Assembly: GCA_036228265.1 (NCBI GenBank)
Contig: JAZAOF010000075.1
Span: 1-49,848 of the forward strand
Length of the DNA: 49,848 nucleotides
Source: Myxococcota bacterium
Lineage (GTDB): Bacteria > Myxococcota_A > UBA9160 > UBA4427
Direction: 5' to 3'
Both the position numbers and the translations under genes were made by a program. The notes under the pieces are model-generated. The model was given only the letters and a program-made list of their open reading frames with translations. It was not told where the DNA came from and ran no database searches. Position 1 is the stretch's first letter; the number at the start of each line of letters is the position of its first letter. Positions 32,385 to 49,257 of the stretch are shown here, in pieces.

Positions 32385-32423
32385 GGGGCGGAAACGCCGC
32401 CGCGCCCAGGTTGCGGGAGCGTT

Positions 32424-35246
32424 GTGCTGAAGATCGAAGCGGGGGACGCCGAAAGGTTCGGGATCTCCGTACGCGCCTTCGCCGACTTCACCCGAGCGCT
32501 CGGCCCGATGGCCGTGGTGGATCTCGAAACCACGGGCCTTCCCGACGACCCTGGCGCGGAACTCCTTGAATTTGGCGCCGTTTGTTTCGATCGAGATGGC
32601 TCCGAGGTCACGACCGCCCAGACCCTGGTACGCCCCCGGACGGCCCTACCGCTGTTGATTCGTCGCTTGACGGGGCTCTCGGACGCGGACGTGAGCGATG
32701 CTCCCACGAAGGAAGAGGTCGCCGCAGAGATTGCGGACCTCCTGGCGGGCCGGGTGTTGATCGCTCACAACGCCGATTTCGAGCGTACCTTCCTCGCGCG
32801 CTGCGTGGACCCGGCCCTGGCGGATGCGGTCTTCCTCGACACCCAGGACCTTCTTGCCCTGACGCATCCTGACGCACCGGATCTGCGACTGGAGTCGTTT
32901 ACGCGCATGCTCCTCTCCACGGAGGAGCGACATCGCGCACTCGACGATGCCCTCGACACCGCTCGCGTGTTGTCGCGAATTTCCGACGGGGCGGCTTCGG
33001 GATCCTCACGCTATCTCACTGCTCGCGCGGCACTGGACCGTTACGCCCCCGAGTCGCCGTGGCTCGCGCTGCTCGGCCAGCAACTGGACGTGGGTTCGCA
33101 AAGCGAGTCGAACCCCTACATCGAGGTGGGGCCCAGCGCGGAGAAGCCCGTGGCCTTTGACGAAGAGGCCATTGCCAGCGCTCTCTCCGATGTGGAGAGA
33201 GGCCAGCGGCATTTTCCCGGGTACCGGATTCGAAAAGAACAGGTCGATCTCGCCCGTCATTTCTTTCGCAACTTCGATTCGGGAGGAGCGCTTCTGATCG
33301 AGGGAGGTACGGGCGTCGGGAAGTCTCTCGCGTACCTGGCGGCTGCAATTCCCTTCGCGATGGAGCGTGCAGCGGGCGGCATTCGCGAACCGATCGTGGT
33401 GTCGACACGAACCAAGCTTCTCCAGGATCAACTTCTCGAGAAGGATATTGGGAGCGCCGCGCGGATGTTGGGCTATCCCGACCTTCGCGCTCTCTCGATC
33501 AAGGGGCGCGCCAACTACGTGTGCGAGCGCCGGTCCGAGCACGTGCTGGACGAAGGACGCCAGGGTTCGATATTCGAAGAGGACCGCTACGCCTCCGCGG
33601 TGTTGATGGCGTGCGTACGCACGCGCGCCCACGGTGAGATCGGCGCGATTCCGGCCGCCCTGCTCCGCCGCTACCCTCCGTTGCGCGAGCTTTTGCGCCG
33701 CTCGGTGTCCTCTCGCCCGGTTCAATGCAGCCGCGAACAGTGTGCCCGACGGCGAGAGTGTCCGTTCGGACGGCGTCGATCCGCCCTGGCGAGAGCCCAT
33801 CTCATCGTCGCCAACCACGACTTGTTGCTGCGCTGGCCGCCAGACTATCCGTCCTTCACGCACGCGATTGCCGACGAGGGTCACGAGCTGTCGGGAGTGG
33901 CCGACGAAGTTTATGCCACCGTCGTGCGCCCGGATGAAATCATCGAACGCGTCGATGAAATTTTCGGCCGCCCATCGGATCGGGGTCGGGGGGGTACCGG
34001 GCTGGCACGCCCGGCCCGCCGGGGAGTGGGGAAGGATGCCCGGGCGTGGCGTCGCGATCTCTACGCGGACCTGAGCGCGCTTGGTCGTGTTCTCTACGAC
34101 GACGCGAGCGAGTACGGAGAAGTTCACCTTCCCGAGAATGCGGCCGATCGCCTTCCGCTGGCCGCGGAGTTGGCGACGACCGCGGCCCTGCGCCTGGAGC
34201 AGGTGGCCTCGGAAGCCATGCGGCGGGACGCCGAGGCCCGGGACGCGGACGGCGACGAGAGAGAAGACGGACCTTCCCCGGTGGAGAGCGCGGCCCAGGA
34301 CCTCCGGCTCGCCTCCACCGGGCTTCGCGAGGCTTTCTCCGATCGGTCGAGCGAAGCGGTTTCGGCTTTCGAACAGCTCGCGAGCCCTTTTGACCACTGG
34401 CAATTGTCGATTCGCGCCGTTTCCCCGGCCCCCGCGTTTCACGAAGCTTTTCTCTCCCGGCTCGAATCGTTTGCCGCGGTCTCGGCGAGCCTTTTTGTCG
34501 GTGGCGACGCGTTTGCGGCCCTGGGCGAGTTGGAGATTTCCGAGCGCAGTCTCCTGCCCGTCTCGCAGGTCGCGGTGGAGAGCCCATTCCCCTATTCCGC
34601 GCATATGCGTTTCGCGGCCCTGAAGCAGGCGGAGGGAGAATTGGTCGACGAGACCGCGGCGGTGTTGGCCGATCTCGCTCGCCGACTCGATGGGCGGACG
34701 CTTGGACTCTTTACGAGCCTGAGGCGCATGAACCGGGTAGCGGAACTTCTGAGCGAGGAGTTTCGCGGCGAAGGCATCGAGATCCTGGCTCCCCGCCGCG
34801 CCAGTGACGACCCGTCGGCGTTGGTCGAGCGTTTTTGTCGCGCCCGCGGTGGCGCGGTGCTTCTCGGCGCTCGGACCTTCTGGCAAGGCCTGGACATTCC
34901 CGGCACCGACCTCCAGGCGGTCGTGATCGAAAAGCTGCCGTTCGAAGTGCCCACCGAATTGCGTCGGCGTCGGGAGTCCCGGATCCGGGAGGCCGGAGGG
35001 GATCCGTTCATGCGGTTCGCGCTGGGCAAGATGCTGCTCCACCTGAAGCAGATGGCCGGGCGACTGATCCGGAGCGAAGACGATCGCGGGCTGGTTGTCG
35101 TCGTGGAGGGTCGGACCGATCGTCGCTATTTCCGGCAGCTTTCCCGGGCTCTCCCGGGCGGGGTCCAGGTCCGCGTTGGGCGCCGAGAATTTCTTTCGGG
35201 CCTACTTGCCGAACTGGGCCTCGGCACGCATGTTGACGATGCCTGA
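32424..35246 (+). CDS. dinG: DEDDh 3'-5' exonuclease fused to DinG-family Fe-S helicase
   Basis: VDLETTG, AHNADFE, HRALDDA; GGTGVGKS, KGRANYVC and CSREQC...CPF, DEGH, FWQGLD, QMAGRLIRS. Confidence 0.9.
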   Translation: MLKIEAGDAERFGISVRAFADFTRALGPMAVVDLETTGLPDDPGAELLEFGAVCFDRDGSEVTTAQTLVRPRTALPLLIRRLTGLSDADVSDAPTKEEVAAEIADLLAGRVLIAHNADFERTFLARCVDPALADAVFLDTQDLLALTHPDAPDLRLESFTRMLLSTEERHRALDDALDTARVLSRISDGAASGSSRYLTARAALDRYAPESPWLALLGQQLDVGSQSESNPYIEVGPSAEKPVAFDEEAIASALSDVERGQRHFPGYRIRKEQVDLARHFFRNFDSGGALLIEGGTGVGKSLAYLAAAIPFAMERAAGGIREPIVVSTRTKLLQDQLLEKDIGSAARMLGYPDLRALSIKGRANYVCERRSEHVLDEGRQGSIFEEDRYASAVLMACVRTRAHGEIGAIPAALLRRYPPLRELLRRSVSSRPVQCSREQCARRRECPFGRRRSALARAHLIVANHDLLLRWPPDYPSFTHAIADEGHELSGVADEVYATVVRPDEIIERVDEIFGRPSDRGRGGTGLARPARRGVGKDARAWRRDLYADLSALGRVLYDDASEYGEVHLPENAADRLPLAAELATTAALRLEQVASEAMRRDAEARDADGDEREDGPSPVESAAQDLRLASTGLREAFSDRSSEAVSAFEQLASPFDHWQLSIRAVSPAPAFHEAFLSRLESFAAVSASLFVGGDAFAALGELEISERSLLPVSQVAVESPFPYSAHMRFAALKQAEGELVDETAAVLADLARRLDGRTLGLFTSLRRMNRVAELLSEEFRGEGIEILAPRRASDDPSALVERFCRARGGAVLLGARTFWQGLDIPGTDLQAVVIEKLPFEVPTELRRRRESRIREAGGDPFMRFALGKMLLHLKQMAGRLIRSEDDRGLVVVVEGRTDRRYFRQLSRALPGGVQVRVGRREFLSGLLAELGLGTHVDDA

Positions 35247-35259
35247 CCCGACGGCATAC

Positions 35260-35275
35260 TGGCTCGGAGCTTGCT
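35260..35275 (+). promoter_or_regulatory. Candidate sigma54 promoter of the fatty-acid operon
   Basis: TGGCTCGGAGCTTGCT, one mismatch to TGGCACGNNNNTTGCW, intergenic. Confidence 0.5.
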
Positions 35276-35451
35276 TGGGGGCGCTGGAGCGAGATCGGAC
35301 CGGTGTGCTCCTCGGGCATCCGATCACGGAAAAGGCTGTAAATCCAAGCTGTTAAAATCGAAGCGGAAACCCCGGCGGGTTTTCGCGAGGCAACCGATTA
35401 CGGAGCGCCGTCCGGGCTTCGAGACCGACATCCTCAGAGGGAGGGGAAATA

Positions 35452-36399
35452 GTGGCAACCGCGTTCGACGAGGGGAACTGGGCGCTGATCCTCGGTGGTT
35501 CCAGTGGTTTCGGATTGGCCACGGCGCGCAAGCTCGCCGAACAGGGTTTGAACCTCTGCATCGTGCACCGCGACCGGCGTGGAGCCATGCGCCAGATCGA
35601 GCCCGAATTCGAAAAGCTTCGAAGCCTTGGGATCGGATTCCGCTCCTGGAACGTCGACGCGATTTCGGAAGAGAAACGCACGGGAGTCCTCGATGAGCTG
35701 CCCGAGGTGATGGGCGAGAATGGCCGCGTTCGCGTGCTCCTCCACTCGATTGCGTTCGGCAACCTGAAGCTGATCGCCCCGGAAGCCCGGCTGCCCCGCA
35801 CGGCGCCGCAGGCCCTGGCGGAAAAGCTTGGCCTCGATCCGGGTGCGGTCGTTGCGGCCGCGGACGAACTGCTCTCCGCCGGAGAGGATGGGCTCCATCC
35901 GCTGGCGACGCCTCCGGCCTATTCGGCGACGTCCTATCTCTCCGAGGATGATTTCGCTCGCACGATTCTCAGCATGGGGACCAGCCTTCTGGGTTGGACC
36001 CAGGGGTTGTTTGACCGGGGCCTCTTCGCAAACAACGCGCGCATCTTCGGCCTGACGAGCGAGGGGAATACGCTCGCGTGGAAGGGGTATGCCGCGGTAT
36101 CGAGCGCCAAGGTGGCCCTGGAGGCGTTGGCCCGTTCCATTGCCGTCGAGTACGGACCGCACGGGATCCGCTGCAACGTGATCCAGGCGGGGATCACCGA
36201 TACGCCGGCCCTCCGAGCGATTCCTGGCAACGAACAACTCGTGGCCCAGGCGCGCCTTCGCAACCCGGGGGGGCGCCTGACCGAGCCCCACGATGTGGCC
36301 GACGTCATCTATCTCCTTTCGTTGGAGGAGGCCTCCTGGATCAACGGCGAAGTCATCCGCGTCGATGGGGGTGAGCATGTTTCGGGGGTAACGCGTTGA
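35452..36399 (+). CDS. Enoyl-ACP reductase, FabL/FabI-like SDR
   Basis: GGSSGFG, LLHSIAFG, LTSEG, YAAVSSAK (Y-x6-K), TDTPAL, VDGG. Confidence 0.8.
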   Translation: MATAFDEGNWALILGGSSGFGLATARKLAEQGLNLCIVHRDRRGAMRQIEPEFEKLRSLGIGFRSWNVDAISEEKRTGVLDELPEVMGENGRVRVLLHSIAFGNLKLIAPEARLPRTAPQALAEKLGLDPGAVVAAADELLSAGEDGLHPLATPPAYSATSYLSEDDFARTILSMGTSLLGWTQGLFDRGLFANNARIFGLTSEGNTLAWKGYAAVSSAKVALEALARSIAVEYGPHGIRCNVIQAGITDTPALRAIPGNEQLVAQARLRNPGGRLTEPHDVADVIYLLSLEEASWINGEVIRVDGGEHVSGVTR

Positions 36400-37400
36400 C
36401 CCTGCACCTCCACGGACTCGGTCATTTCCACCCCGATGCCGAGATCACCAACGGCTTTCTCGAAGAGCTCGATATCGGGACCGACGACGAATGGATCCTC
36501 GATCGCGTTGGAATTCGCTCCCGCCGGACAATGCTTCCTCTCGATTACATCCGGGAAACCCGGAATCGCGATCCGCGGGAAGCCCTCGAGGCGGCGACTT
36601 TTTCGAACGCCCAAACCGGCGCTGAGGCCGCGCGCATGGCGCTACGGCGTGCGCAGGTCGAGCCTTCCGAAATCGGCATGGTCATCGCGGGATCGTCGGC
36701 TATGGACACGGCTTCGCCGGCCGAGGCGTGCAATATTGCTCGCGAACTCGAGATCGAAGTTCCGAGCTTCGACATCAACTCGGCCTGCACGAGTTTCTTC
36801 ACCCAACTCTACCTGCTCTCCCGGATGCAGCCGGAGTCTCTGCCGAACTTCATCCTGGTCGTGACGCCCGAGGGTTTGACGCGAACCGTCGACTACACCG
36901 ACCGCTCCTCCGCGGTGCTCTGGGGAGATGCGGCGGCGGCGGCGGTGGTCTCCCTGGTGGAGCCCGGGCGCGCCGAAATCGTCGACACCAGCCTTGTCTC
37001 GAGCCCGGCAGGAGCGGAGAAGGTGGTCGTTCCGCGCATCGGTCACTTTCACCAGGAAGGTCGCACCGTCCAGATGTTTGCCATCAAGAAGACCTCGCGG
37101 ATCCTTCGGGCGCTCCAGGCCGATCACGGGGGGGGCGACCGCGCGTTTCATTTCGTGGGACACCAGGCCAACCTGCGAATGCTCGAGACGGTCTGTGAAC
37201 GCTGTAAGATCCCGTCGGACCGTCACCACGCGAATGTCGAATGGTATGGAAACACGGCTGCGGCCAGCGCCGCCTCTGTCATTTCGATGGAGTGGGACAA
37301 GTGGTCCGCGGAAGACGATATCGCTGTCGTTGGAGTGGGGTCCGGGCTCACGTGGTCCGGGTACCTGATGCGCTTTTCCGGGGAGGAGCCCGATCCGTGA
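36396..37400 (+). CDS. fabH: 3-oxoacyl-ACP synthase III (FabH-like)
   Basis: WILDRVGIRSR, SAC, WGDAA, HQAN, YGNT (C-H-N triad), GSGLTW. Confidence 0.88.
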   Translation: MTLHLHGLGHFHPDAEITNGFLEELDIGTDDEWILDRVGIRSRRTMLPLDYIRETRNRDPREALEAATFSNAQTGAEAARMALRRAQVEPSEIGMVIAGSSAMDTASPAEACNIARELEIEVPSFDINSACTSFFTQLYLLSRMQPESLPNFILVVTPEGLTRTVDYTDRSSAVLWGDAAAAAVVSLVEPGRAEIVDTSLVSSPAGAEKVVVPRIGHFHQEGRTVQMFAIKKTSRILRALQADHGGGDRAFHFVGHQANLRMLETVCERCKIPSDRHHANVEWYGNTAAASAASVISMEWDKWSAEDDIAVVGVGSGLTWSGYLMRFSGEEPDP

Positions 37401-37987
37401 AATACGATGAATTTCTCTCCCGGGACCACTTTACGAAGCCCGAACTGTTGGCGCACTCGTACGGTCGTCTCGTGGAGAATCCACCGGAACACTTCCGGGC
37501 CCGGTTACCGGCGCCGCCAATGCTGATGCTCGATCGCGTGCTTGAGCTTTCGGCGCAAAAGTCCCGCGGGAGGATGGTGGCCGAGCGCGACATTCATCTC
37601 GACGACTGGTTTTTCCAATGTCACTTCGATGGAGATCCGGTTCAGCCGGGCTGTCTCGGGGTCGATGGGATCTGGCAGATGCTGGGCTTTTACTGCATCT
37701 GGCGGGGGGGGCTTGGGTCCGGGCGTGCTCTTGGGTGCGGCGAAGTTGATTTTTTTGGACAGATCCGCCCTCACGACAAGGTCGTTCGCTACGAGGTCGA
37801 CATCCGTCGCTACACGGAAATTCCCCAGCACGGCGCTTCGATCGTGATCGGCGATGCGCGGCTCCTGGTCGATGGCGAGGAGATCTACGCGGTCAAGCAG
37901 GCCAAGGTTGGACTCTTTCGGGACATCGATTACGCGGATTACCCGCTGCCCTCCGAGCGTTCTCGCGGCGGGAGGATGGAGCGATGA
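37397..37987 (+). CDS. fabA: 3-hydroxydecanoyl-ACP dehydratase/isomerase
   Basis: LPAPPMLMLDR, WFFQCHFDGDPVQPGCLGVD (His/Asp), GRALG, KVGLF. Confidence 0.92.
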   Translation: MKYDEFLSRDHFTKPELLAHSYGRLVENPPEHFRARLPAPPMLMLDRVLELSAQKSRGRMVAERDIHLDDWFFQCHFDGDPVQPGCLGVDGIWQMLGFYCIWRGGLGSGRALGCGEVDFFGQIRPHDKVVRYEVDIRRYTEIPQHGASIVIGDARLLVDGEEIYAVKQAKVGLFRDIDYADYPLPSERSRGGRMER

Positions 37988-38712
37988 GCGAGTCTCCGGT
38001 AGCGATCGTCACCGGGGCCGCGACCGGCATCGGAGCGGCGTGCGCCCGGAAATTGGCGGCGGAAGGTTTCCAGGTGGGTATTCACTACCGCTCGAGCGCC
38101 GAGAAGGCGGAAAAACTTCTTTCGGAGATACCGGGGGCATTTGGCCTGCGAGCCGACCTTTCCAATGCCGAAGAGATCGACGCAATGATCAAGGAGATCA
38201 AGAACGGCCCCGGGCGTGTCGACGTTCTGGTCAACAACGCCGGTTACAACGAGAACGCCCCGATGCTCACCATGAAGCTCGACGCCTACGACGCGGTAGC
38301 CGGATTGGCCCGCGGAACCTGGTACCTGACGAAGCTCGTTCTCCGGCGATTCATGTTGCGCAAGGAGTCGGGCCGGATCGTCAACATTTCGAGCGTGGTG
38401 GGTTCTACCGGCAACCCCGGCCAGATCCCGTACACGATGGTGAAGGCTGGATTGGATGCGTTTACCAAGTCTCTCGCCCAGGAGCTCGCGGGACGGGAGA
38501 TTCTCGTGAACTCCGTTGCGCCGGGTTTCATCGAAACGGAAATGACCGGCGAACTGCCCGAGGAGATCCAGGCGGGGATCCTGGCTCGAATTCCCCAGGG
38601 TCGAATGGGTCCGCCGGAGGAAGTCGCGGACGTCGTGTGCTTTCTCGCCAGCCGTGCGAGCTATGTCAACGGCTGCGTGCTTCATGTGAACGGAGGGCTC
38701 TATGGGGGATGA
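37984..38712 (+). CDS. fabG: 3-oxoacyl-ACP reductase
   Basis: TGAATGIG, NNAG, ISSVVG..GNPGQ, YTMVK, APGFIETEMT. Confidence 0.9.
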   Translation: MSESPVAIVTGAATGIGAACARKLAAEGFQVGIHYRSSAEKAEKLLSEIPGAFGLRADLSNAEEIDAMIKEIKNGPGRVDVLVNNAGYNENAPMLTMKLDAYDAVAGLARGTWYLTKLVLRRFMLRKESGRIVNISSVVGSTGNPGQIPYTMVKAGLDAFTKSLAQELAGREILVNSVAPGFIETEMTGELPEEIQAGILARIPQGRMGPPEEVADVVCFLASRASYVNGCVLHVNGGLYGG

Positions 38713-39169
38713 ACGGCTGAATTTTGGCCCCGCCGAGGTCCTGGCGGCGCTTCCGCAGCAGGAACCGTTCCGCTTTCTCGACGAAATCGTAGAGCTCGAT
38801 GACGAACATATCGTGGCTCGATACACGTTCCGCGAGGAGGCGGACTTCTACCGAGGACATTTCCCCGGAAATCCCCTTACCCCGGGCGTGATCCTGGTGG
38901 AGACCATGGCCCAGGCTGGTGTCGTGGCCTTGGGTCTCTATCTTGCTTCCCATGAACTTCCCCGGGAGGAATTCGAGAAACTCGTGACCGTTTTCACCGA
39001 CGCCAACGTGGAGTTCAGCGGGAGCGTGTATCCCGGAGATCGGGTGACGTGCGTGGGCCGCAAGGTCTTCTTTCGCAGGCGGAAACTACGGTCGGAGGTG
39101 GAGCTTCGGCTCGATGACGGCTCGGTCGTGTGTTCCGGAGTGCTTTCGGGGATGGGGGTCGCTCAATGA
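38702..39169 (+). CDS. fabZ: 3-hydroxyacyl-ACP dehydratase, FabZ-like
   Basis: LPQQEPFRFLD, GHFPGNPLTPGVILVETMAQ (His/Glu). Confidence 0.85.
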   Translation: MGDERLNFGPAEVLAALPQQEPFRFLDEIVELDDEHIVARYTFREEADFYRGHFPGNPLTPGVILVETMAQAGVVALGLYLASHELPREEFEKLVTVFTDANVEFSGSVYPGDRVTCVGRKVFFRRRKLRSEVELRLDDGSVVCSGVLSGMGVAQ

Positions 39170-40446
39170 GCCGCCGCGTCGTCGTGACGGGCATGGGGGT
39201 GGTGGCTCCGAACGCCAACGGCGTCTCGGAGTTCGATGACGCGCTGCGAAAGGGGCGGTCGGGGATTCGATTCGTCCCGGAAATGGAAGAGCGTGGATTC
39301 GGTTGCCACGTGGCCGGGGCACCCCAGGGCGTGGATGCGATCGCAGAAGCCACATTCGAGGAGGAAGAACTTCTCGTGATGAATGTCAGCCAGCGCTACG
39401 CGAGCCTTGCCGCGCTGGAGGCCTGGACCGATGCGGGCCTGGAACGCCCCGATCCGAAAGACGATCGTGTGAACTGGGACACGGGCGCAGTTCTCGGAAC
39501 CGGGATCGGCGGGATGGACACGACCGCCGATCGCATCGTCCCGTTTGTCAATGCGAAGAAAGTGCGCCGCCTGGGTTCGACGGCTGTTGAGCAGGTCATG
39601 GCCAGCGGAATTTCGGCCCGGGTTTCCGGACAACTCGCCCTTGGGAACCAGGTCACGACGAACTCGAGTGCGTGCAGCACCGGTAGCGAGGCCGTTGCCA
39701 TTGGAGCGGAACGGATTCGACTCGGGTTGGCCGAGCGGATGGTTTGCGGCGGATCCGAGGCAGCGAACGTCTACATCTGGTCCGGATTTGACGCGATGCG
39801 CGTGTTGTCTCGAAAATTCAACGACGAGCCGGAGAAGGCCTCCAGGCCGCTCTCCGCATCGGCCGCCGGGTTCGTCCCAGGGTCCGGGGCTGGGGTATTG
39901 GTCCTTGAGAGTCTCGAGAGTGCCGAGGCGCGCGGGGCCCCCATCCACGCGGAGATCCTGGGAGCGGCGATCAACTGCGGAGGTCACCGGGCGGGCGGTA
40001 GTATGACCGCGCCCAACCCCGACGGGGTCCGGAGGTGTATTCAGCAGGCCCTGGAGGCGGCGTCGATCGAAGCGGAATCCGTCGACGCCCTCAACGGGCA
40101 CCTGACGGCTACGGGGGCGGATCCCCGCGAGGTGGAGTCCTGGTCGATCGCCCTGGGCCGGGGCCCGGGGGAACTGCCGCCCATCACCGCGACGAAATCC
40201 ATGATCGGGCACGGACTTGGAGCGGCCGGAGGGCTGGAAGCCGTTGCCAGTGTGCTGATGCTTCGCGGCGGCTACCTTCACCCCTGTCTCAATTCCGAAG
40301 ATGTTCATCCCGAGATCGAGCCCTTCGCGGGGTCGATCTCGCAAGAGACGCGGGAGATGACCGATCTCCGGATAATGATGAAGGCGAGTTTTGGTTTTGG
40401 GGATGTGAATGCCTGCCTCGTCTTTGAAAAATGGATCAACGACTGA
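39166..40446 (+). CDS. Beta-ketoacyl-ACP synthase (FabF/FabB-like)
   Basis: RRVVVTG, SSACSTG, NGHLTAT, KSMIGH, SFGFG. Confidence 0.92.
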   Translation: MSRRVVVTGMGVVAPNANGVSEFDDALRKGRSGIRFVPEMEERGFGCHVAGAPQGVDAIAEATFEEEELLVMNVSQRYASLAALEAWTDAGLERPDPKDDRVNWDTGAVLGTGIGGMDTTADRIVPFVNAKKVRRLGSTAVEQVMASGISARVSGQLALGNQVTTNSSACSTGSEAVAIGAERIRLGLAERMVCGGSEAANVYIWSGFDAMRVLSRKFNDEPEKASRPLSASAAGFVPGSGAGVLVLESLESAEARGAPIHAEILGAAINCGGHRAGGSMTAPNPDGVRRCIQQALEAASIEAESVDALNGHLTATGADPREVESWSIALGRGPGELPPITATKSMIGHGLGAAGGLEAVASVLMLRGGYLHPCLNSEDVHPEIEPFAGSISQETREMTDLRIMMKASFGFGDVNACLVFEKWIND

Positions 40447-40473
40447 TCGAGTGAACCGAGGGAGATTCTCGAG

Positions 40474-40722
40474 ATGGAAGAGAAACAGATCATGGAGAGC
40501 GTCGTCAAGATACTGACGCCGTGGGTGAAGAACGAAGACGCCCTCGCGTCGGTTGCGATGGAGACGAACATCCTGGACGACCTGAAAGTCAACTCCGCGC
40601 GGCTGGTGGACGTGGTGATTGCTTTCGAGGACGAGTTCGATATCGAAATCGAGGACGAAGACGTCGATTCTGTCAATACGGTGGGTGACGCGGTCAAGCT
40701 GATTGGATCGAAACTCGGTTGA
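40474..40722 (+). CDS. Acyl carrier protein (NS-type motif)
   Basis: 82 aa acidic; DDLKVNSARLVDVV..FEDEFDIEI...TVGD. Confidence 0.9.
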   Translation: MEEKQIMESVVKILTPWVKNEDALASVAMETNILDDLKVNSARLVDVVIAFEDEFDIEIEDEDVDSVNTVGDAVKLIGSKLG

Positions 40723-40762
40723 TGCCTCGCCGCCGTCTACGGGTACCGGTGCAGATCCTTCT

Positions 40763-41548
40763 GTGAATCGGAGCCCAAAAGAGGGCACGCTCTTGGACGG
40801 AGCCGCGATACAGCCGGAGTTCAATTTTCGGCACGCGTTGCAACGCGAACTGGGTCGGCTCCTGGCTCCGCTTTGGGTTCCGTGCGTGGCGCTCTACCTC
40901 TGGTCGGTAAAACGCTACCGGATCCAGGGAGTCCAGGAGTCGCGCCGAGCCTTTGCGCGTTTTCGTCGGGAGAGCGACGCACCGATTCTCGTATGTGCCA
41001 ACCACCTGACACTGATCGACTCGATGCTCGTCGCTCTCGCCCTCGTGCCGGTTTGGAAGCTGACCTTCTTTTTTGACTGGATGCCGTGGAATACGCCGGA
41101 ACGAACGAATTTTGCCTCGGGATGGGGCATGCGCTTTCTGACCTATCTTGCGAAGTGTATTCCGATCACCCGGGGCGGGCGTCGCGAAGACGTGGCCACC
41201 GTGTTGGACCGGCTGGGCCGCTTGACGCGCCGCGGAGAGTTGGCACTCGTCTTTCCCGAAGGCGGACGGAGCCGAACCGGGCGCGTCGACGTCGATGCGG
41301 CTGCGTGGGGGGTCGGTCGTGTTATCGGTTCCATACCGGGCTGTCGTGTTGTGTGCGTCTACCTCCGCGGTCGGGTCCAGGAAAACTGGAGCGATTTCCC
41401 AGTGACCGGCGAAAGTTTCGACGTAGAGGTGGCCTGCATTGAACCGAAGTCCGATTCGCGCGGCGCCCGCCGCTCTCGAGACCTGGCGCGTCAGGTCGTC
41501 TCCCAGCTGGTTCGCATGGAGGAGCGGGTTCTCGATGATCGGCAATGA
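40763..41548 (+). CDS. PlsC-family (lyso)phospholipid acyltransferase; start uncertain
   Basis: NHLTLID (Hx4D), FPEGGRS. Confidence 0.88.
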   Translation: MNRSPKEGTLLDGAAIQPEFNFRHALQRELGRLLAPLWVPCVALYLWSVKRYRIQGVQESRRAFARFRRESDAPILVCANHLTLIDSMLVALALVPVWKLTFFFDWMPWNTPERTNFASGWGMRFLTYLAKCIPITRGGRREDVATVLDRLGRLTRRGELALVFPEGGRSRTGRVDVDAAAWGVGRVIGSIPGCRVVCVYLRGRVQENWSDFPVTGESFDVEVACIEPKSDSRGARRSRDLARQVVSQLVRMEERVLDDRQ

Positions 41549-42173
41549 CGTCGTTGATCTCTGCGATCGGGATGCCGATTCCGCGACCTTTTCCGCGCGT
41601 TTCGACGAGCGGGTCTTTGCCCCATCGGAAAGGTCGCGCATCGCCATGTCCGCGGATCCCGAGAACTGTCGCTGGCGCATGTGGTCGGCAAAGGAAGCGG
41701 CCTACAAGGCTGCCCGGAAGGCGGATCCCACGGTCCTCTTTTCGCCGAAGCGATTCGAGGTCCGATTTTCGGAAACCGACTCCCCGGGCGCGGAAATTTG
41801 CCTCGGCTCCACGAATCCTTCACGGATCGAGGTCCAATTTTTTTCCGAGGGATCTTCGGTACACGCCGTGGCTCTTTCTCCAGGATGGAAGCACGCGAGG
41901 GTCGTTCACGGGTGCGAGCGGATTTCGACCGATTCGATGGGAACGTCTCGTTCGTTCGGTCCGGGAAACGCCGCGCGCCGGCTGGCGCTTCAGCGCCTGG
42001 CCCGGGCCTTGGAGTTTCGGCGGGACCAACTCGAGATCCGCCGTGAAGACAGGATCCCCGTCCTCTTTGAGAGCGGGCGCCGGGTCGCGGGGAACCTTTC
42101 GCTCTCTCACCATGGGGAGTGGGTGGCCTTTGCGTTCGAGTGCGGAGTGACGACTGGGGAGGCTGCGGAGTGA
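41535..42173 (+). CDS. 4'-phosphopantetheinyl transferase
   Basis: MIGNDVVD, WSAKEAAYKA, LSLSHHG. Confidence 0.9.
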   Translation: MIGNDVVDLCDRDADSATFSARFDERVFAPSERSRIAMSADPENCRWRMWSAKEAAYKAARKADPTVLFSPKRFEVRFSETDSPGAEICLGSTNPSRIEVQFFSEGSSVHAVALSPGWKHARVVHGCERISTDSMGTSRSFGPGNAARRLALQRLARALEFRRDQLEIRREDRIPVLFESGRRVAGNLSLSHHGEWVAFAFECGVTTGEAAE

Positions 42174-45100
42174 GCGGAGCAACCACGGGACCCCGCGAGA
42201 TACGGCGCCTGGCCATCGCGAACCGGGGCGAAGCGGCCCTGCGTTGCATTCGCGCGGCACGATCTCTTGCGGCTCGCGAAGGTACAGTGCTCCAGACGAT
42301 CGCTCTCTATACGGAGGTGGATCGAGATGCCCCCTTCGTGCGTCACGCGGATGTCGCCATCGAGCTTCCGAGTCGAGAGGGCGCGGTGGCGGCCTACCTG
42401 GACCACGATGGCCTGATCGCGGCCTGCCGGGAAGCCGGAGCCGACGCGGTCTGGCCCGGTTGGGGCTTTGTTGCAGAAGATCCGATTTTTGCCGACCGGG
42501 TGGCTTCCGAGGGGATGGTTTTTTTGGGTCCTTCCGGCGAGGCGATGCGAGTTCTCGGCGACAAGATTGCCGCGAAGAAGCTGGCCGAAAGTGCTGGTGT
42601 CCCCGTGACTTCCTGGAGCGGTGGCGAACTCGAGACGGAAGACGACGCCTCGGCGCAGGCGGAATCCATTGGATACCCCATCGTGATCAAGGCCTCGGCC
42701 GGAGGCGGAGGTCGTGGCATTCGGATCGTTCACCAGCCGTTCGAAGTCAAGGAAGCCTTTCGGGCGGCCCGGGCCGAGGCCGAAACCGCCTTCGGGGACA
42801 ACCGCGTGTTCTGCGAAAAACTCGTTGAAGGCGGTCGGCATATCGAGGTGCAGATCGTCGCCGACGCGCACGGGCACGTGATGGCGGTTGGAAGTCGAGA
42901 CTGCTCTGTCCAGCGTCGACACCAGAAGGTCCTGGAAGAAGCGCCGCCTCCGAACCTGTCGGCGGAGGTACTCGAGCCCGTAACTTCAGCGGCTGTTCAA
43001 TTGGCCGAGCGAGTGGGCTACGTCGGCGTGGGCACCGTTGAATTCCTCTTGTCCGGGAGCACCGCCTACTTCCTCGAAATCAATCCCCGGCTGCAGGTCG
43101 AACACGGGATTACCGAGGAAATCACGGGGCTCGACCTCGTCGAGCTGCAGATACGTATCGGTCGGGGTGAGTCCCTCGGCGATCTCACGTGGGAGGAAAG
43201 CGGCGTCGCGATCGAGGCCCGGGTATGCGCCGAGGATCCGGACGCGGGTTTCCTTCCTTCACCGGGACGCATCGTCGTATTCGACCCGTCCCTCGGCCCC
43301 CGCGTACGGCTGGATTCCGGTGTCGCCGCGGGTACCACGGTGCCATCGGATTTCGACTCGCTCATCGCCAAGGTCATTGCGACAGGCAAGGATCGCAACG
43401 AGGCACTCGCGCGACTCGCGTGTGCCCTCGGCGACTTTGAACTGGTGGTCCAGGGAGGAGCCACGAACAAGGGGTATCTCCTGGAATTGCTCGCGAGCGA
43501 CGAGTATCGGCGTGGCGGGGTGGATACGGCGTGGCTGGACCGCTGGGGCGAAGCCCGCGAACGCGAGTCGAGTAGCGACGCCGAAGTCTCGCAAGACGCG
43601 CTGGTTGCGGCCGCGATCCTGGCCTACCAGGATGCCCGGAGCGTCGCGCGTACGAACTTCTACGTCGATACCACTCGGATCACGGGCGACCGGATTCCTC
43701 CGAGCGAGGGTCAACAGATCGACCTTTCGCATGCCGGAGAAGCCTACCGGCTCAAGGTCTACGCCACGGGTTCGTGGCGCTATCGCGTTCATCTCGATGG
43801 GCGCGTGGTCGGGGCGACCATGCGAGAAGAGGGAGCGCAATCGGCGGGGATGATCATCAACGGGCGCCGTCGTCGAATTCTCTACGACCGTACGGATGTG
43901 AGCCTGCGGGTAGAGGTCGACAGCCGTCCCTATCGATTTGGCTGGCAGACCTTGGGCCAGGTCGCTGCGGCAACGCCCTCGGTGGTCGTGGCCATCCACG
44001 TCGGGGTTGGGGACCGTGTCGAGACGGGCGATTCGTTGGGGCTCGTCGAAGCGATGAAAATGGAGGTTTCTTTCCAGGCCCCGGTTTCGGGAGTGATCCG
44101 CGAGATTCGGGTTCGCAAGGGTCAGCAGGTTGCTGCGGGCGAGATCTTGCTCGAGATCGACCCGGCGGGAGAGAGTTCGGACGGCACCGAGGTGCGATCT
44201 CGCCTGGAACTTCCCCGTCAAACGGACCCCCTGGCCCTGTTGTTTCGCGCCGACGGTGACAACCCGTTGGGTGAGCCAGCCCTCGAGGCGGCTGCCGCCG
44301 CGCAAGCCGGACCCATCGACGATGCCATTCGGGCCGCGCGCGAGGAGGTTCGGCGCGTTCTCCTGGGTTACGACGCCAATTCTGAACGGGGCGACAGCCT
44401 CGTGGCTTTTCTCGACGCCCCACTTCCCGAGGATCTCCCGGCCTCCTTTGAGCTCCAATTGGCGGAAATTCGAAGCGAGCTCGCCGTGTTTGCCGACATC
44501 GAGGAACTTTTCATCCGGTCTCCCCGGGCCTCGGTATCGGGAGACCTTGGCCCATCCAACAACGCTCGCTTTCGTATGTACGTGCGTCGCATGCGGGCCG
44601 AGGGCGCAGGGATCGCGCCGGAATTCCTCGACCTGGTAAGGCGCGCTCTTTGGCACTATGGGATCCACGAACTCACGCCGAGCGACGGCCTCGAGCGCGC
44701 GGTGTTGCGGATGCTCGCCAGCGAGCGAGAGCCTTCGCTTCGCCAGCGGCTGGTCTTGGGGATGTTGCACCGCATCGCCGCACTCTCAGAATCCGGCGTG
44801 GACCTGGGTGCCCAAGCTGAACTCCGGGACGCACTGCGTCGAATCACGCGCATGCGCGGACTCCTCCCAGACACGGTTGCCGATGCGGCGAGCGAGGCCC
44901 ACTACCTGATCTTCGAGCGTCCAGAGCTCGAACGCGAGGTCGAGCAGAGTTCCAAGGATCTCGAGGCCTGGCTTGCTCGTGCCGAGTGGCAGCCGACCAA
45001 CCCTTCCGCGAACGTCCTGATGGAGGTGGCCGCCGGGGCCCGTCGCGTTTTCGACCGCGTCGGCCGGTGGATCGGGGCCGCCGATGTCAACCGGCGGGAG

Positions 45101-47815
45101 ATCGCGCTCGCCGCGCACGTCCAGCGGATCTACGCGCCTATCGCGCCCTCGAATCGGCGCCTCTTCAACCAACAGGGGACCGGTATCCAGTCCGCGGAAT
45201 ACGCGGACCGGGGTCTCGTTCTCGCGGCAACGGCCTCCGAAGAAGAAATCGCGATGGTGGCCGAGCGCCTTTGCCTGGCGGGGGCGAGTCTTGCGGCGAA
45301 CGAGCTCGAGACTCCGCTCTACGCCCTTGAACTGGTCGTGCCGTCGGGTTTCGAAGGATCGGCTGAACGTTGGGGCAACGAACTCCCGGTGTTGCTCTCG
45401 GACGCGGGCCTTCGTTGTCGCTTCAGCATTGCTTTCCTGGTTGAAAATGGAAACCACGTCTATCGCAGTTTCCTGCCGGATTCGGACGGTGGCGTCGCGC
45501 TGATGCGCGAGTGCGGAGAGATCCATCCCGAAGTGGCCCACCGCATCGACTTGGAGCGTTTCAAGGAGTTTGAACTCGAAAGAGTTCCCAGCGACGAGGG
45601 GATCTACACGTTCCACGGCCGTGCGCGAAGCATGCCCGGGGACGAGCGTATTTTTGTGCTCGCCGACGTCCAAAGCCGGGTCACCGGGGAAGAGCACGAA
45701 GCGCGGCTTCACCTCGCGACCTTTGAGCGAGCGTTCTACCAGGCGGCTCGTAGTCTCCGCAGTACGCTGCAAAGTCGCGATCCGCGGCGCCGCCTGCACT
45801 GGAATCGGATCGCGCTCTTTTTGGCACCGGAAATTTTCCTGGACCCGGAGATCGCCGACGATCTCGCCAAGCGACTCGCCCCCGCCACGCGTCACCTGGG
45901 CCTGGAGAAGGTGTTGGTTCGGTTGAGCCTGCTCGACCGGAATTCTCCCGAGCGGGCTGCCGAAGTTCGCGAACTGGTGATCACCGAGGCGAGTGGCGAG
46001 GAGATGAAACTCGACTTCCGGGAGCCGCACCACGACCCGTTACGGCCGGCCGCCGACTACGAACGGCAGGTCGTGGCTGCCCGAAGCCGAGGGCTCGTCT
46101 ACCCCTACGAAATCATTCGGATGCTTGCCTCCGACGACGAAACCGATGGGGGGGTCGGATCCAGCGCCCTGATTCCGCGCGGGCGTTTCGAGGAGTTCGA
46201 CGTGGAGTCGAGTCCATCGGGCGTACGCGCCGTAAGCGTTGCGGGGCGCGAATACGGTCGGAACCAAAGCGGTGTCGTCTTCGGGATCATTTCCACGCCC
46301 ACGGGCAAGGTTCCCGAGGGCATGCGACGGGTGCTGGTTCTCTCGGATCCGAACCGGGGTATGGGGTCGCTCGCGGTTGCCGAGTGCGAACGCATCGTCG
46401 CAGCGATCGATCTGGCCGAGCGCGAACAGATTCCGGTTGAGTGGGTCCCGGTCAGTTCGGGAGCGGCGATTGCCATGGACAGTGGCACGGAAAATCTCGA
46501 CGCGACCGCACGGGTCGTGCGTCGGATCGTGACCTTTACGCAAGCGGGTGGGGTCATCCACGTGATCGTCTCGGGGGTCAATGTCGGAGCGCAGAGCTAC
46601 TTCAACGCGCTATCGACGATGCTGATGCACAACCGGGGCATCCTTGTGATGACGCCGGGTGCCTCGATGGTGCTCACCGGTCGAGCCGCCCTCGAAGCCT
46701 CGGGAGCGGTTTCGGCCGAAGACGAAGTCGCCATCGGAGGTTTTGAGCGAATCATGGGGCCCAATGGGCAGGCCCAGTACTACGCCACCAGCCTCGGGGA
46801 CGCGTTTCGCGTCCTCTACGATCACTACCGCTATAGCTATGTCGTACCGGGAGAAACCGGCCCGAGGCGCTTTACGACGACCGACCCAACCGAGCGTTCG
46901 GTGTGCGACTACGCACTCGATGAGGTTGACGGATTCGACTTTGCCCGGGTCGGAGAAATTTTTGACGACCAAAGCAACCCGGGCCGCAAACGTCCCTTTG
47001 CCATGCGGTCGGTCATGCGCGCGGTCATCGACCAGGACGGGGGGCACCTGGAACGCTGGCGGACGATGGTGGGGGCTGAAACGGCGATCTGCTGGGACGC
47101 TCACCTCGGCGGAAATGCCGTGACGATGATTGGGATCGAGAGCCACTCCGTGCCGCGGGAAGGTTACCGATCCTTCGACGGGCCCGAAGCGTGGACCGGG
47201 GGAACCCTGTTTCCGCTCTCTTCGAAGAAGGTGGCGCGCGCCCTCAACTCGGCGAGCGGGATTCGCCCGACGGTGGTCCTGGCCAACCTTTCGGGTTTCG
47301 ACGGGTCTCCCGAGTCCATGCGGAAACTCCAACTGGAGTACGGTGCTGAAATCGCCCGAGCCGTGGTGAACTACGAAGGCCCGTTGCTGTTTCTCGTGGT
47401 GTCGCGGTACCACGGGGGCGCCTACGTGGTCTTTTCCCAGGAACTCAATGACGATCTTCACTCCATGGCGCTCACCGGATCCTTTGCTTCCGTCCTCGGC
47501 GGTGGACCGGCGGCCGCGGTCGTCTTTACCCGCGAGGTACGTGCTCGCGCGCTGGCCGATCCACGGGTAGTGGCCGCGGAGTCGCGGGTTCGGGAGGAGC
47601 GATCGCCTGAGTCCCGCGAATCCCTGGAGGAAACTCTCGCGGACGTGACGTTGGAGGTCCAGGCGGATCTCGCTGCAGAATTCGATCGGATTCACAGCGT
47701 GGAGCGGGCCCAGGAGGTGGGGAGCCTGGAGCGCATCCTGTCGCCCGAAAAAATGCGTCCCGAGTTAATCCGGTGGATCGAGGCCGGGAGCCGGTTCGGT
47801 GGCGAACGGGGCTGA
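42170..47815 (+). CDS. Single-chain multidomain acetyl/acyl-CoA carboxylase (BC-BCCP-central-CT), 1881 aa
   Basis: IANRGE, PGWGFVAE, KASAGGGGRG, CSVQRRHQK, NPRLQVEH; EAMKM at 44048-44062; CT motifs SSGAAI, LANLSGFDG, YHGGAYVV; GTGA overlap. Confidence 0.93.
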   Translation: MSGATTGPREIRRLAIANRGEAALRCIRAARSLAAREGTVLQTIALYTEVDRDAPFVRHADVAIELPSREGAVAAYLDHDGLIAACREAGADAVWPGWGFVAEDPIFADRVASEGMVFLGPSGEAMRVLGDKIAAKKLAESAGVPVTSWSGGELETEDDASAQAESIGYPIVIKASAGGGGRGIRIVHQPFEVKEAFRAARAEAETAFGDNRVFCEKLVEGGRHIEVQIVADAHGHVMAVGSRDCSVQRRHQKVLEEAPPPNLSAEVLEPVTSAAVQLAERVGYVGVGTVEFLLSGSTAYFLEINPRLQVEHGITEEITGLDLVELQIRIGRGESLGDLTWEESGVAIEARVCAEDPDAGFLPSPGRIVVFDPSLGPRVRLDSGVAAGTTVPSDFDSLIAKVIATGKDRNEALARLACALGDFELVVQGGATNKGYLLELLASDEYRRGGVDTAWLDRWGEARERESSSDAEVSQDALVAAAILAYQDARSVARTNFYVDTTRITGDRIPPSEGQQIDLSHAGEAYRLKVYATGSWRYRVHLDGRVVGATMREEGAQSAGMIINGRRRRILYDRTDVSLRVEVDSRPYRFGWQTLGQVAAATPSVVVAIHVGVGDRVETGDSLGLVEAMKMEVSFQAPVSGVIREIRVRKGQQVAAGEILLEIDPAGESSDGTEVRSRLELPRQTDPLALLFRADGDNPLGEPALEAAAAAQAGPIDDAIRAAREEVRRVLLGYDANSERGDSLVAFLDAPLPEDLPASFELQLAEIRSELAVFADIEELFIRSPRASVSGDLGPSNNARFRMYVRRMRAEGAGIAPEFLDLVRRALWHYGIHELTPSDGLERAVLRMLASEREPSLRQRLVLGMLHRIAALSESGVDLGAQAELRDALRRITRMRGLLPDTVADAASEAHYLIFERPELEREVEQSSKDLEAWLARAEWQPTNPSANVLMEVAAGARRVFDRVGRWIGAADVNRREIALAAHVQRIYAPIAPSNRRLFNQQGTGIQSAEYADRGLVLAATASEEEIAMVAERLCLAGASLAANELETPLYALELVVPSGFEGSAERWGNELPVLLSDAGLRCRFSIAFLVENGNHVYRSFLPDSDGGVALMRECGEIHPEVAHRIDLERFKEFELERVPSDEGIYTFHGRARSMPGDERIFVLADVQSRVTGEEHEARLHLATFERAFYQAARSLRSTLQSRDPRRRLHWNRIALFLAPEIFLDPEIADDLAKRLAPATRHLGLEKVLVRLSLLDRNSPERAAEVRELVITEASGEEMKLDFREPHHDPLRPAADYERQVVAARSRGLVYPYEIIRMLASDDETDGGVGSSALIPRGRFEEFDVESSPSGVRAVSVAGREYGRNQSGVVFGIISTPTGKVPEGMRRVLVLSDPNRGMGSLAVAECERIVAAIDLAEREQIPVEWVPVSSGAAIAMDSGTENLDATARVVRRIVTFTQAGGVIHVIVSGVNVGAQSYFNALSTMLMHNRGILVMTPGASMVLTGRAALEASGAVSAEDEVAIGGFERIMGPNGQAQYYATSLGDAFRVLYDHYRYSYVVPGETGPRRFTTTDPTERSVCDYALDEVDGFDFARVGEIFDDQSNPGRKRPFAMRSVMRAVIDQDGGHLERWRTMVGAETAICWDAHLGGNAVTMIGIESHSVPREGYRSFDGPEAWTGGTLFPLSSKKVARALNSASGIRPTVVLANLSGFDGSPESMRKLQLEYGAEIARAVVNYEGPLLFLVVSRYHGGAYVVFSQELNDDLHSMALTGSFASVLGGGPAAAVVFTREVRARALADPRVVAAESRVREERSPESRESLEETLADVTLEVQADLAAEFDRIHSVERAQEVGSLERILSPEKMRPELIRWIEAGSRFGGERG

Positions 47816-47869
47816 GGCCCACCTGCACCCGGCTGAGGTTTGGATATCCTGACAATGGGAGATGGGGAT

Positions 47870-48277
47870 ATGAAAACAGTCGAGCAGCGTTCCGGGGTGG
47901 ACGGATCGGGCGGGGACCGGATCTTTCTCGAGGGAATCCAGATACCGGCTGCGTTGGGCGTGACGGCGGCCGAGCGGCGGATGCGTCGACCGGTCATCCT
48001 CGACGTCGAAATTGGTCAAGATCTCCGGGTTGCGGGTCGCAGCGATCAGATCCGTCACACGCTTCAATACGAACGCATCTTCGAAGTTCTCGAGGACGTC
48101 GCAGGAAACCAGGAACACCGCCTGGTCGAAGCGCTGGGGCAGCGAATTGCCGATGCCGTACTCGATAAGTTCGACCCGGAATGGGTGACGGTCTGGGTGC
48201 GCAAGCCGAAGCCCATCGCAGGCGTTCTCGACTACGCCGGCATTCGGATTACGCGGAGGCGAGACGAGGGCCAGTGA
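47870..48277 (+). CDS. folB: Dihydroneopterin aldolase
   Basis: DRIFLEG, GVTAAER, TLQY, LVEAL, VRKP. Confidence 0.88.
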   Translation: MKTVEQRSGVDGSGGDRIFLEGIQIPAALGVTAAERRMRRPVILDVEIGQDLRVAGRSDQIRHTLQYERIFEVLEDVAGNQEHRLVEALGQRIADAVLDKFDPEWVTVWVRKPKPIAGVLDYAGIRITRRRDEGQ

Positions 48278-49257
48278 GCCTCGCCCAGCGCCTCGAGTAC
48301 GGTGCGCTGTGCCTGCTGCGTGAGCCGTTTCGGCGCCTCCCGGTGGCAACGTCGCTTTCGCTGGCTGCGCGCCTGGGCACGTTCTACGCCTCGCTTGGCG
48401 GGGTTCGCCTCGAGTTCGCGCGCATCAACCTCCGCATCGCCTTTCCCGACTGGAGCGAAGCCCGGCGAGAGCGAGTCCTGGCCGAGAGCCTGGCCAATAT
48501 CGGTCGCACGCTGGCCGAGTTGGCGCTGATCCAGGGTCGCCACCGTTCGCAACTGCTCGGCCGCGTTCGCCTCGAGGGGCTCGAGCACCTCGAACGCGCG
48601 CGCCAGCAGTCGGCTACGGGGGGCGTGATGGTGATCTCGGCGCACCTGGGCGACTGGGAGCTATGCGGCATGGCGGCAGCCGGCCAGGGTTTCCCGCTGA
48701 CGGTGGTCCACCGTCCGTTTGCAAACCCCCACGTCGAGGCCATGGTGCAGCGTTGGCGCGAGGGGTCGGGAATGCAGCCGCTGGCGCTTGGTCGCGCCGC
48801 CTCGGGGGCCTTCCGCGCGCTGAAGCGGGGCGAGTACGTGCTGATGTTGCTCGATCAGGACGCCCCGCGAGAAGAAGCGGTGTTCGCGGACTTCTTCGGC
48901 GTCCCGGCGGCGACGCGCTCGGCGCCGGCACGGCTGGCCATGAGGGCCGGCGCATCGGTGCTTCCGGTATCGGCCTTGCGCCAGGGGCGTGGCGCCGACC
49001 ACGTCGTTCGCTTCGAGTCGCCACTCGAGATCCTGGGCGACGACCCCGGTGACCGCGCGCAGCTGCAGGCCAACGTGGCCACCATGAACCGGGCCCTGGA
49101 GGCGCTCGTCCGGGCCGCCCCGGAGCAATGGAGTTGGCTGCACCGGCGTTACCGCACGCGACCCGACCCCGACGAGCCCGGCCCCTACCCCTCTCGCCGC
49201 GGCGTGAGCCGACCACTGATGCCCCTGCCGCCCGGCTCGAACACAGCCCACCAATAA
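48274..49257 (+). CDS. Lipid A lauroyl/lysophospholipid acyltransferase (LpxL/HtrB family)
   Basis: NLRIAFP, SAHLGDWE, LLDQD, FFG.PA, PEQWSWLHRRY. Confidence 0.9.
   Translation: MSLAQRLEYGALCLLREPFRRLPVATSLSLAARLGTFYASLGGVRLEFARINLRIAFPDWSEARRERVLAESLANIGRTLAELALIQGRHRSQLLGRVRLEGLEHLERARQQSATGGVMVISAHLGDWELCGMAAAGQGFPLTVVHRPFANPHVEAMVQRWREGSGMQPLALGRAASGAFRALKRGEYVLMLLDQDAPREEAVFADFFGVPAATRSAPARLAMRAGASVLPVSALRQGRGADHVVRFESPLEILGDDPGDRAQLQANVATMNRALEALVRAAPEQWSWLHRRYRTRPDPDEPGPYPSRRGVSRPLMPLPPGSNTAHQ

Follow-up and report, generated by a model that had tools for sequence, protein, structure and literature searches.

The closest published counterpart of the gene block described here is found in Coxiella, where CBU_0034-0038 encode an acyl carrier protein (ACP), FabB, FabZ, FabA as well as FabH. 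The available text of PMC5423948 presents these genes as an en-bloc acquisition from a deltaproteobacterium or a spirochete, with a role in unsaturated fatty-acid synthesis assigned by homology, and the accessible part of PMC13252051 repeats this. Other points of comparison are the type II fatty-acid synthase (FAS) of E. coli with its FabA/FabB branch, and SACE_4237 of Saccharopolyspora erythraea, an essential single-chain acetyl-/propionyl-CoA carboxylase (PMC6491548, as far as its available text goes). We analysed a stretch of 49,848 nucleotides (hereafter the window; contig JAZAOF010000075.1, assembly GCA_036228265.1) from a Myxococcota bacterium, which carries ten fatty-acid genes in one operon. 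We judge it reasonably probable that this operon is an import from which the bacterium's uncultured order now has its ketoreductase, dehydratases, enoyl reductase and carboxylase, with a private ACP-ketosynthase pair and a shared FabD. As far as gene content tells, it is likely the source of most fatty-acid synthesis in cells of the order, rather than of one special lipid. Its genes are the following.

35452..47815, + strand: whole block, ten co-oriented open reading frames (ORFs), from ORF calls, Pfam and NCBIfam
35452..36399, + strand: FabL-like enoyl-ACP reductase of the short-chain dehydrogenase/reductase (SDR) type, Tyr213-X6-Lys220, best PDB match 3oic
36396..37400, + strand: FabH-like KAS III, C131-H256-N286, with a 19-residue insertion
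37397..37987, + strand: FabA dehydratase/isomerase, H76 and D90
37984..38712, + strand: FabG ketoreductase, S137, Y150 and K154
38702..39169, + strand: FabZ-like dehydratase, H53 and E67
39166..40446, + strand: elongating ketosynthase (KS) of its own clade, C170-H312-H349
40474..40722, + strand: ACP, Ser41 in N-S-A-R, not D-S-L-D (the NSAR carrier)
40763..41548, + strand: HX4D glycerolipid acyltransferase (GPAT/PlsC/tafazzin superfamily), PF01553, start uncertain (GTG 40763 or TTG 40793)
41535..42173, + strand: 4'-phosphopantetheinyl transferase (PPTase), PF01648
42170..47815, + strand: single-chain acetyl-CoA carboxylase (ACC), 1881 residues, BC-BCCP-central-CT, biotin motif near residue 630

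The ORF coordinates bore out what an initial annotation, made from the sequence, had described, namely ten co-oriented and mostly overlapping genes in this order: seven of the nine junctions overlap, by 4-14 bases, the KS-ACP gap is 27 bases and the ACP-acyltransferase gap 40-70 bases, depending on the start codon. Its family labels are each supported by Pfam and NCBIfam. For the first gene FabL is the best family, at 120.6 bits and below the cut-off of 328, and the PDB match 3oic is named enoyl-ACP reductase [NADPH] (E 6e-23). The FabA protein passes NF003509 (209.5 bits for a cut-off of 124) and falls under the cut-off of TIGR01749, and the ACC_central domain of the carboxylase is weak (E 1e-7). 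Among solved structures, none close was found for the KS, the FabH-like protein, the acyltransferase or the full carboxylase. The GC content of the operon is unremarkable relative to the rest of the window, and a promoter/terminator scan of the region gave results near chance.

Species genomes were scanned for relatives with the FabH-like protein as query, and 80 of the 143 found were kept; per-gene counts refer to the loci whose slot falls inside the fetched DNA. Gene order is fixed among the kept loci, FabL-FabH-FabA-(FabG)-FabZ-KS-ACP-acyltransferase-PPTase-(carboxylase), with FabL in 62/77, FabA in 73/74, the ACP in 67/67, the acyltransferase in 64/64, the PPTase in 53/59 and the carboxylase in 22/54. 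Because content and order recur in this way, the ten-gene grouping is not a product of chance. Among the record titles of these loci are Myxococcota, Gemmatimonadota, Binatia and Acidobacteriota. Titles are in part wrong: the locus L025, titled Geobacter, lies in G074, whose coordinates are those of G015, a genome of the window's order, and the labels 'Spirochaetaceae' and 'Geobacter' were left out of the phylum tally. Catalytic residues are near-invariant in the relatives (FabH C-H-N 80/80; FabA H/D 75/75; FabZ-like H/E 73/73; KS Cys 69/70, with both KS His invariant; acyltransferase H/D 67/67), as is the N-S-A-R of the ACP (68/68). We conclude that the block encodes a predicted type II, or dissociated, enzyme set, with separate KAS III, KS, ketoreductase, dehydratase, enoyl reductase and ACP, and with catalytic residues intact.

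The FabH-FabA-FabZ-FabB-ACP order of CBU_0034-CBU_0038 and of its counterpart in Spirochaeta africana, as given in the available parts of PMC5423948 and PMC13252051, is that of the block without FabG; the likeness seen is one of gene order. FabG is inserted into this Coxiella-type order in 30/74 loci, and compared with the five-gene core the window's block adds reductases, acyltransferase, PPTase and carboxylase. In the published account the Coxiella operon supplements a vertically inherited fab locus, whereas in the window's order canonical fabG, fabZ and fabI are missing. With the FabA/FabB branch of E. coli the block has in common the enzyme set and the catalytic residues, its FabA scoring over the NF003509 cut-off; it differs by a second ACP (NSAR), a KS outside the FabB and FabF clades, FabL or FabV in the place of FabI and a single-chain carboxylase, all in one operon. 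SACE_4237 is a like BC-BCCP-central-CT chain of ∼200 kDa in a genome that the available text of PMC6491548 describes as free of an AccA-type enzyme; the window's carboxylase, likened to it by architecture, stands outside the actinobacteria and inside a fab operon. The initial annotation had proposed the block as a candidate for an undescribed system, which goes too far. The available texts show the five-gene core already published for Coxiella (PMC5423948) and the carboxylase type characterised (PMC6491548), but no biochemical study of the operon and no report of such a replacement was found, most subscription papers lying outside the search.

The standard fatty-acid genes were followed in 70 genomes of the class, all at least 90% complete (52 from the window's order, 18 from a sister order), and in the genome that holds the window (G000, 71% complete and a mix of two strains). 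Denominators of 52, 53, 18 and 71 thus stand for the order, the order with G000, the sister order and all genomes. The surveyed genomes are kin, not independent trials, and for this reason the counts are read as a pattern only. The operon KS was found in 43/52 order genomes and in 2/18 of the sister order.

Outside the block, G000 carries fabD-acpP-fabF on contig C144 (fabD at C144:1018-1959); its canonical FabH is encoded on C55, its AcpS on C101, and C196 holds a PlsB-like gene. The absence of fabD and plsX, pointed out earlier, therefore holds for the block (35452-47815) but not, in the case of fabD, for the genome, and a FabD-family match is present in 71/71 genomes; PlsX was found in 8/71, none of them in the window's family. 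The canonical locus was read in 12 order genomes: it is fabD-acpP-fabF without fabG in ten, and fabD-acpP in two. No canonical FabZ (PF07977) was detected in the order, where the matches to this family are the operon FabA, the FabZ-like protein, domains of polyketide synthase (PKS) type (G001, G031, G051) and one weak match, while 18/18 sister genomes have one. Since skp abuts lpxA in 4/4 order genomes (G000, G007, G065, G055), with fabZ lying between the two in G010 of the sister order, the absence of fabZ is a clean deletion and not an assembly gap. FabI-like proteins were found in 0/53 order genomes versus 16/18 sister genomes, with at most 31 SDR candidates scored per genome. The operon-type FabG is the sole match at the assignment threshold (E<=1e-48) in 50/52 order genomes. 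Full-length AccA was found once in 71 genomes, at a contig edge, and the fused carboxylase in 64/71, standing alone in the sister order. The canonical genes being missing, the operon is the sole recognisable source of the dehydratase, reductase and carboxylase steps in the order.

A second canonical set is therefore present in part, as a remote fabD-acpP-fabF, but fabZ, fabI and the fabG of that locus are lacking, and AccA is too in all genomes but one. Two explanations had been offered at the outset. Best suited to the order is the one in which the standard FAS was replaced in this lineage and FabD is remote (fabZ and fabI absent, fabD in 71/71). An orthogonal, self-contained line for a dedicated chain agrees with an ACP-KS pair that looks private, but not with FabG, dehydratases and carboxylase that are the genomes' only recognisable ones.

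Two observations belong with this survey. The sister-order enoyl reductase at L107:7825-8712 (G010) passes the cut-off of PRK06300, which is not a proteobacterial FabI model. The 5′ half of the operon is repeated on contig C125 of G000 (against window 31279-38363, 90% identical DNA). A duplication was considered and rejected: because ∼35 such contig pairs, of 82-94% identity, occur across the G000 assembly, the copy belongs to a second strain in the bin.

Remnants of the block were found in the nine order genomes without the operon KS. Seven of them retain the operon-type FabG, which in G005 lies directly behind dinG, the operon's usual start; G023 retains FabH and the carboxylase, and G033 the FabZ-like protein and the carboxylase. 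Seven of the nine are without the fused carboxylase and eight without any FabA/FabZ-family gene. These remnants make it probable that the block was ancestral in the order and later partly lost, FabG being the last gene to go; by implication, FabG serves AcpP as well. In the sister order, one genome (G012) gained the block with FabG and is without fabG at the canonical locus; another (G006) gained it without FabG and has retained canonical fabG. The enoyl reductase varies as well: FabL is missing in 11/21 genomes of the family, and FabV was found in 4/5 tested FabL-less genomes versus 0/5 FabL carriers (complementary in 9/10). The neighbour that marks the ancestral operon site in the order is outside the pathway:

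32424..35246, + strand: dinG-type helicase

Together with a thiamine-diphosphate enzyme (PRK05858-like, below cut-off; window 30738-35246 for the pair), it precedes the operon site order-wide, even where only fabG is left.

In seven near-complete genomes (G005, G019, G045, G047, G055, G066, G070) FabA/FabZ-family genes, AccA and the fused carboxylase are all absent, yet lpxC and fabD are present; G055, assembled in one contig, has lost fabF too. These genomes may scavenge fatty acids or rely on another route.

Several observations weigh against so central a role of the operon. In 4/4 hosts of other lineages canonical FabZ coexists with it, meaning that it is accessory there. Within the order, FabA was not found in 7/43 operon-bearing genomes, neither FabL nor FabV was found in G039, and the eight genomes without any FabA/FabZ-family gene show that the block is dispensable in them. 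MaoC-type hydratases, 5-9 per genome in 5/5 tested, could replace FabZ for AcpP. Desaturases are present in 69/71 genomes and six other PF01553 acyltransferases in G000, one of them PlsB-like, which argues that the operon's acyltransferase and FabA are not needed for bulk lipid. The FabI and FabG searches scored a subset of the SDR candidates of each genome, and the charge swap presented below rests on an alignment adjoining an indel. Of 23 loci in Bacteroidota eight were read, and these carry FabZ-KS-ACP-PPTase, in part together with FabL, next to a type III PKS (three of the PKS proteins were scanned). The RNA data were unusable: four runs contained 5-7% of the words and three were placed, with pieces of 150-230 bases, yielding no evidence of transcription or co-transcription.

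Part of these observations would be explained if the operon were an accessory, oxygen-independent line for unsaturated chains, as proposed for Coxiella, with the AcpP line making the bulk through an unrecognised MaoC-type dehydratase and borrowing only FabG and malonyl-CoA. Besides the abundant MaoC-type genes and the coexistence with canonical FabZ in other phyla, such a line would account for the pairing of FabA with a FabB-leaning KS, for the retention of canonical fabH, fabD, acpP, fabF and acpS (also in seven lpxC-less genomes), and for G015, which retains the operon FabA and in which no desaturase was found. We nevertheless hold it to be unlikely, because the seven operon-bearing genomes without FabA keep the remaining genes, desaturases are nearly universal, and seven KS-less genomes are also without the carboxylase, as expected if de novo synthesis had been abandoned. 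A tracking of desaturase loss by FabA was considered and set aside, given desaturases in 69/71.

LpxC was found in 64/71 genomes. The seven others (G039, G040, G056, G059, G068, G003, G069) fall in two genera, with 5/5 and 2/2 of the genomes searched, which suggests lipid A loss in both. A retention of AcpP for lipid A only was considered and rejected, as these seven keep fabD and fabF at that locus.

The predicted fold of the ACP is that of an ACP (pLDDT 90), and N40 and R43 stand where AcpP has D35 and D38, the residues contacted in E. coli by R62, K63 and R66 of FabB (available text of PMC10566503). In the operon KS alignment K63 of FabB is changed to D/E and R66 to L, whereas the host FabF keeps both; the Bacteroidota KS relatives have L at 63, and their ACP has N or H at the matching site. 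The pattern suggests that charges were swapped in compensation, insulating the KS-ACP pair. Because of the NSAR carrier and the matching swap in the KS, elongation is probably private to the operon ACP and KS, FabD, FabG and carboxylase being shared. A quick tree places the KS in a clade of its own, apart from FabB and FabF; as 23 cassette rows were randomly dropped, long branches flagged and only three FabB-type references included, the tree serves for clade separation alone. The KS scores nearer FabB than FabF, and it is not a FabB (NF005935, 270.8 bits versus a cut-off of 630).

The wider KS family reaches Bacteroidota, in the eight loci mentioned above:

L147, L148, L150, L152, L158, L159, L164, L165: FAD oxidoreductase, methyltransferase, type III PKS, (FabL), FabZ, KS, N-S-A ACP, PPTase

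Homologous KS (48-51%), FabZ-like, FabL-like, PPTase and N-S-A carrier are common to both systems, with no fabD among the genes called in Bacteroidota. The neighbours there are the type III PKS and mostly a methyltransferase and a FAD enzyme, where the block has instead FabH, FabA and acyltransferase; no paper on this locus was found. Since these relatives have different neighbours, the module is, judged by its gene neighbourhoods, a portable chain supplier. A strictly dedicated PPTase, as first assumed, was rejected: the operon enzyme is the sole PPTase found in eight operon-bearing genomes, and is missing from 6/59 loci. Three operon-bearing genomes show only another PPTase, and G000 has the separate AcpS on C101.

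A fabD-like gene abuts FabL in 3/80 loci of one clade (L016, L023, L074), with the GHS motif intact and 218-231 bits for a cut-off of 261, and these related loci with a fabD of their own argue against FabD-free loading. As every class genome has a FabD match and the carboxylase is absent from 32/54 loci, malonyl loading via FabD is the plain reading. Direct carboxylation of acyl-ACP, which the initial annotation had envisaged, has no support on these grounds, nor with the carboxylase standing alone in the sister order. Self-loading ACPs exist, and a carrier loaded without FabD, by direct acyl-ACP carboxylation or by self-malonylation, would suit the atypical recognition helix and the lack of fabD in 77/80 loci. 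Such loading is very improbable in view of the in-block fabD genes, the FabD-family match throughout the class and the many loci without carboxylase; in addition, acetyl- and propionyl-CoA are the substrates of the one enzyme with this architecture that has been characterised (PMC6491548, available text). The window's carboxylase, a single chain of ∼200 kDa ordered BC-BCCP-central-CT, has the layout of a multidomain, eukaryote-type bacterial ACC, and we infer that it acts on acetyl-CoA because AccA is absent in 70/71 genomes. In a separate comparison of hosts, four with AccA carry the block without carboxylase, and the one without AccA carries it with the carboxylase.

In the acyltransferase family 34/34 aligned members match PF01553 only, and beyond the HX4D residues, E, R and S of a second (FPEG-type) block are invariant (66/66). 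The protein lies far below the PlsC family cut-off (TIGR00530, 22.7 bits versus 103). Its model (pLDDT 87) has chain T of 7zkq as best fold match (Z 15.2, rmsd 3.7, 224 aligned), with human GPAT1 tied (Z 14.7), then plant GPAT (13.6), PlsC (12.9) and LpxM (9.2); Foldseek ranks PlsC first, fold ranks differing between programs. According to the available text of PMC9668296, entry 7zkq contains tafazzin, and chain T would be that protein. This enzyme raises another explanation, in which the private carrier would make a special acyl chain that the acyltransferase puts on one particular lipid, perhaps remodelling it as tafazzin does, and FabG and the carboxylase would serve housekeeping only secondarily. 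The acyltransferase is inseparable from the ACP (64/64), far from PlsC and best matched in a tafazzin-containing entry; the sister module beside type III PKS in Bacteroidota and the 19-residue insertion in FabH point the same way. We find this explanation distinctly unlikely, since GPAT1 is tied, plant GPAT and PlsC follow and Foldseek ranks PlsC first, no tailoring gene accompanies the block, and tafazzin is ACP-independent (available text of PMC9668296), a misfit for a gene fixed next to an ACP. The lack of aryl-polyene, polyunsaturated fatty-acid and type III PKS genes in the block, stated previously, was confirmed: no KS-CLF pair, multidomain Pfa or chalcone-synthase-type PKS was found in it.

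If the operon has indeed replaced the standard enzymes, a portable type II FAS with its own carrier would have become the everyday core after the host lost fabG, fabZ and fabI. The single-chain carboxylase would supply the entire cell with malonyl-CoA, malonyl would be loaded onto both ACPs by the remote FabD, and the PPTase would activate the NSAR carrier. On this carrier the operon FabH would prime and the operon KS elongate, the charge swap keeping it apart from FabF and AcpP, while FabG together with the FabZ-like enzyme and FabL (or FabV) would finish each cycle, probably on both carriers. Where present, FabA would send part of the flux to cis-unsaturated chains without oxygen, and the acyltransferase would take chains off the NSAR carrier and place them in membrane glycerolipid. 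The chemistry is probably ordinary, and membrane chains of the usual saturated and monounsaturated kinds are expected as products. A bolder version can be put forward only tentatively: a mobile, charge-insulated second FAS would have displaced the ancestral reductive half order-wide, the NSAR carrier making membrane chains via an undescribed acyltransferase family, with AcpP as a dependent side line and the operon-losers as scavengers.

What is new here is the genome-wide test, in which canonical fabZ, fabI, fabG and accA losses are seen alongside the operon. If true, the replacement would be a clear case of an imported module taking over a core pathway, and living genomes would show the steps on the way, from an accessory role in other phyla through partial displacement in G012 to takeover in the order and, after loss, relics. 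It would extend FabA-type unsaturation and single-chain carboxylases well past their textbook hosts. For one uncultured family it predicts a dependence on fatty acids, a point of relevance to cultivation. An ACP-KS pair insulated by nature would help both in studying how carriers are recognised and in engineering fatty-acid lines that run in parallel.

Some observations concern the surroundings of the block. Among 522 plasmid records hit, no match of at least 60% identity was found. Downstream of the carboxylase and in the same direction, the window has folB and an LpxL-like acyltransferase (47840-49257), a pair conserved in part of the order only: folB-lpxL follows the carboxylase directly in G007 and G061 and lies a few genes further on in G038; the DNA fetched for G065, G001 and L011 is without it. 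With such inconsistent placement, a link to lipid A through this gene was rejected and it is treated as a neighbour. The operon fabA has been relocated outside the block in three genomes of one family (G038:C1:769370, G017:C646, G035:C168). From the block, a Planctomycetota-titled locus (L008:10001-11730) has no genes but the FabH-like one and FabG, inserted behind hydrogenase-like membrane genes. Finally, G000 carries on contig C32 an aryl-polyene-like cluster (L142:7008-19997) with a halogenase-like flavoprotein, FabG2, KS, an MMPL-type transporter, ACP and a CoA ligase.

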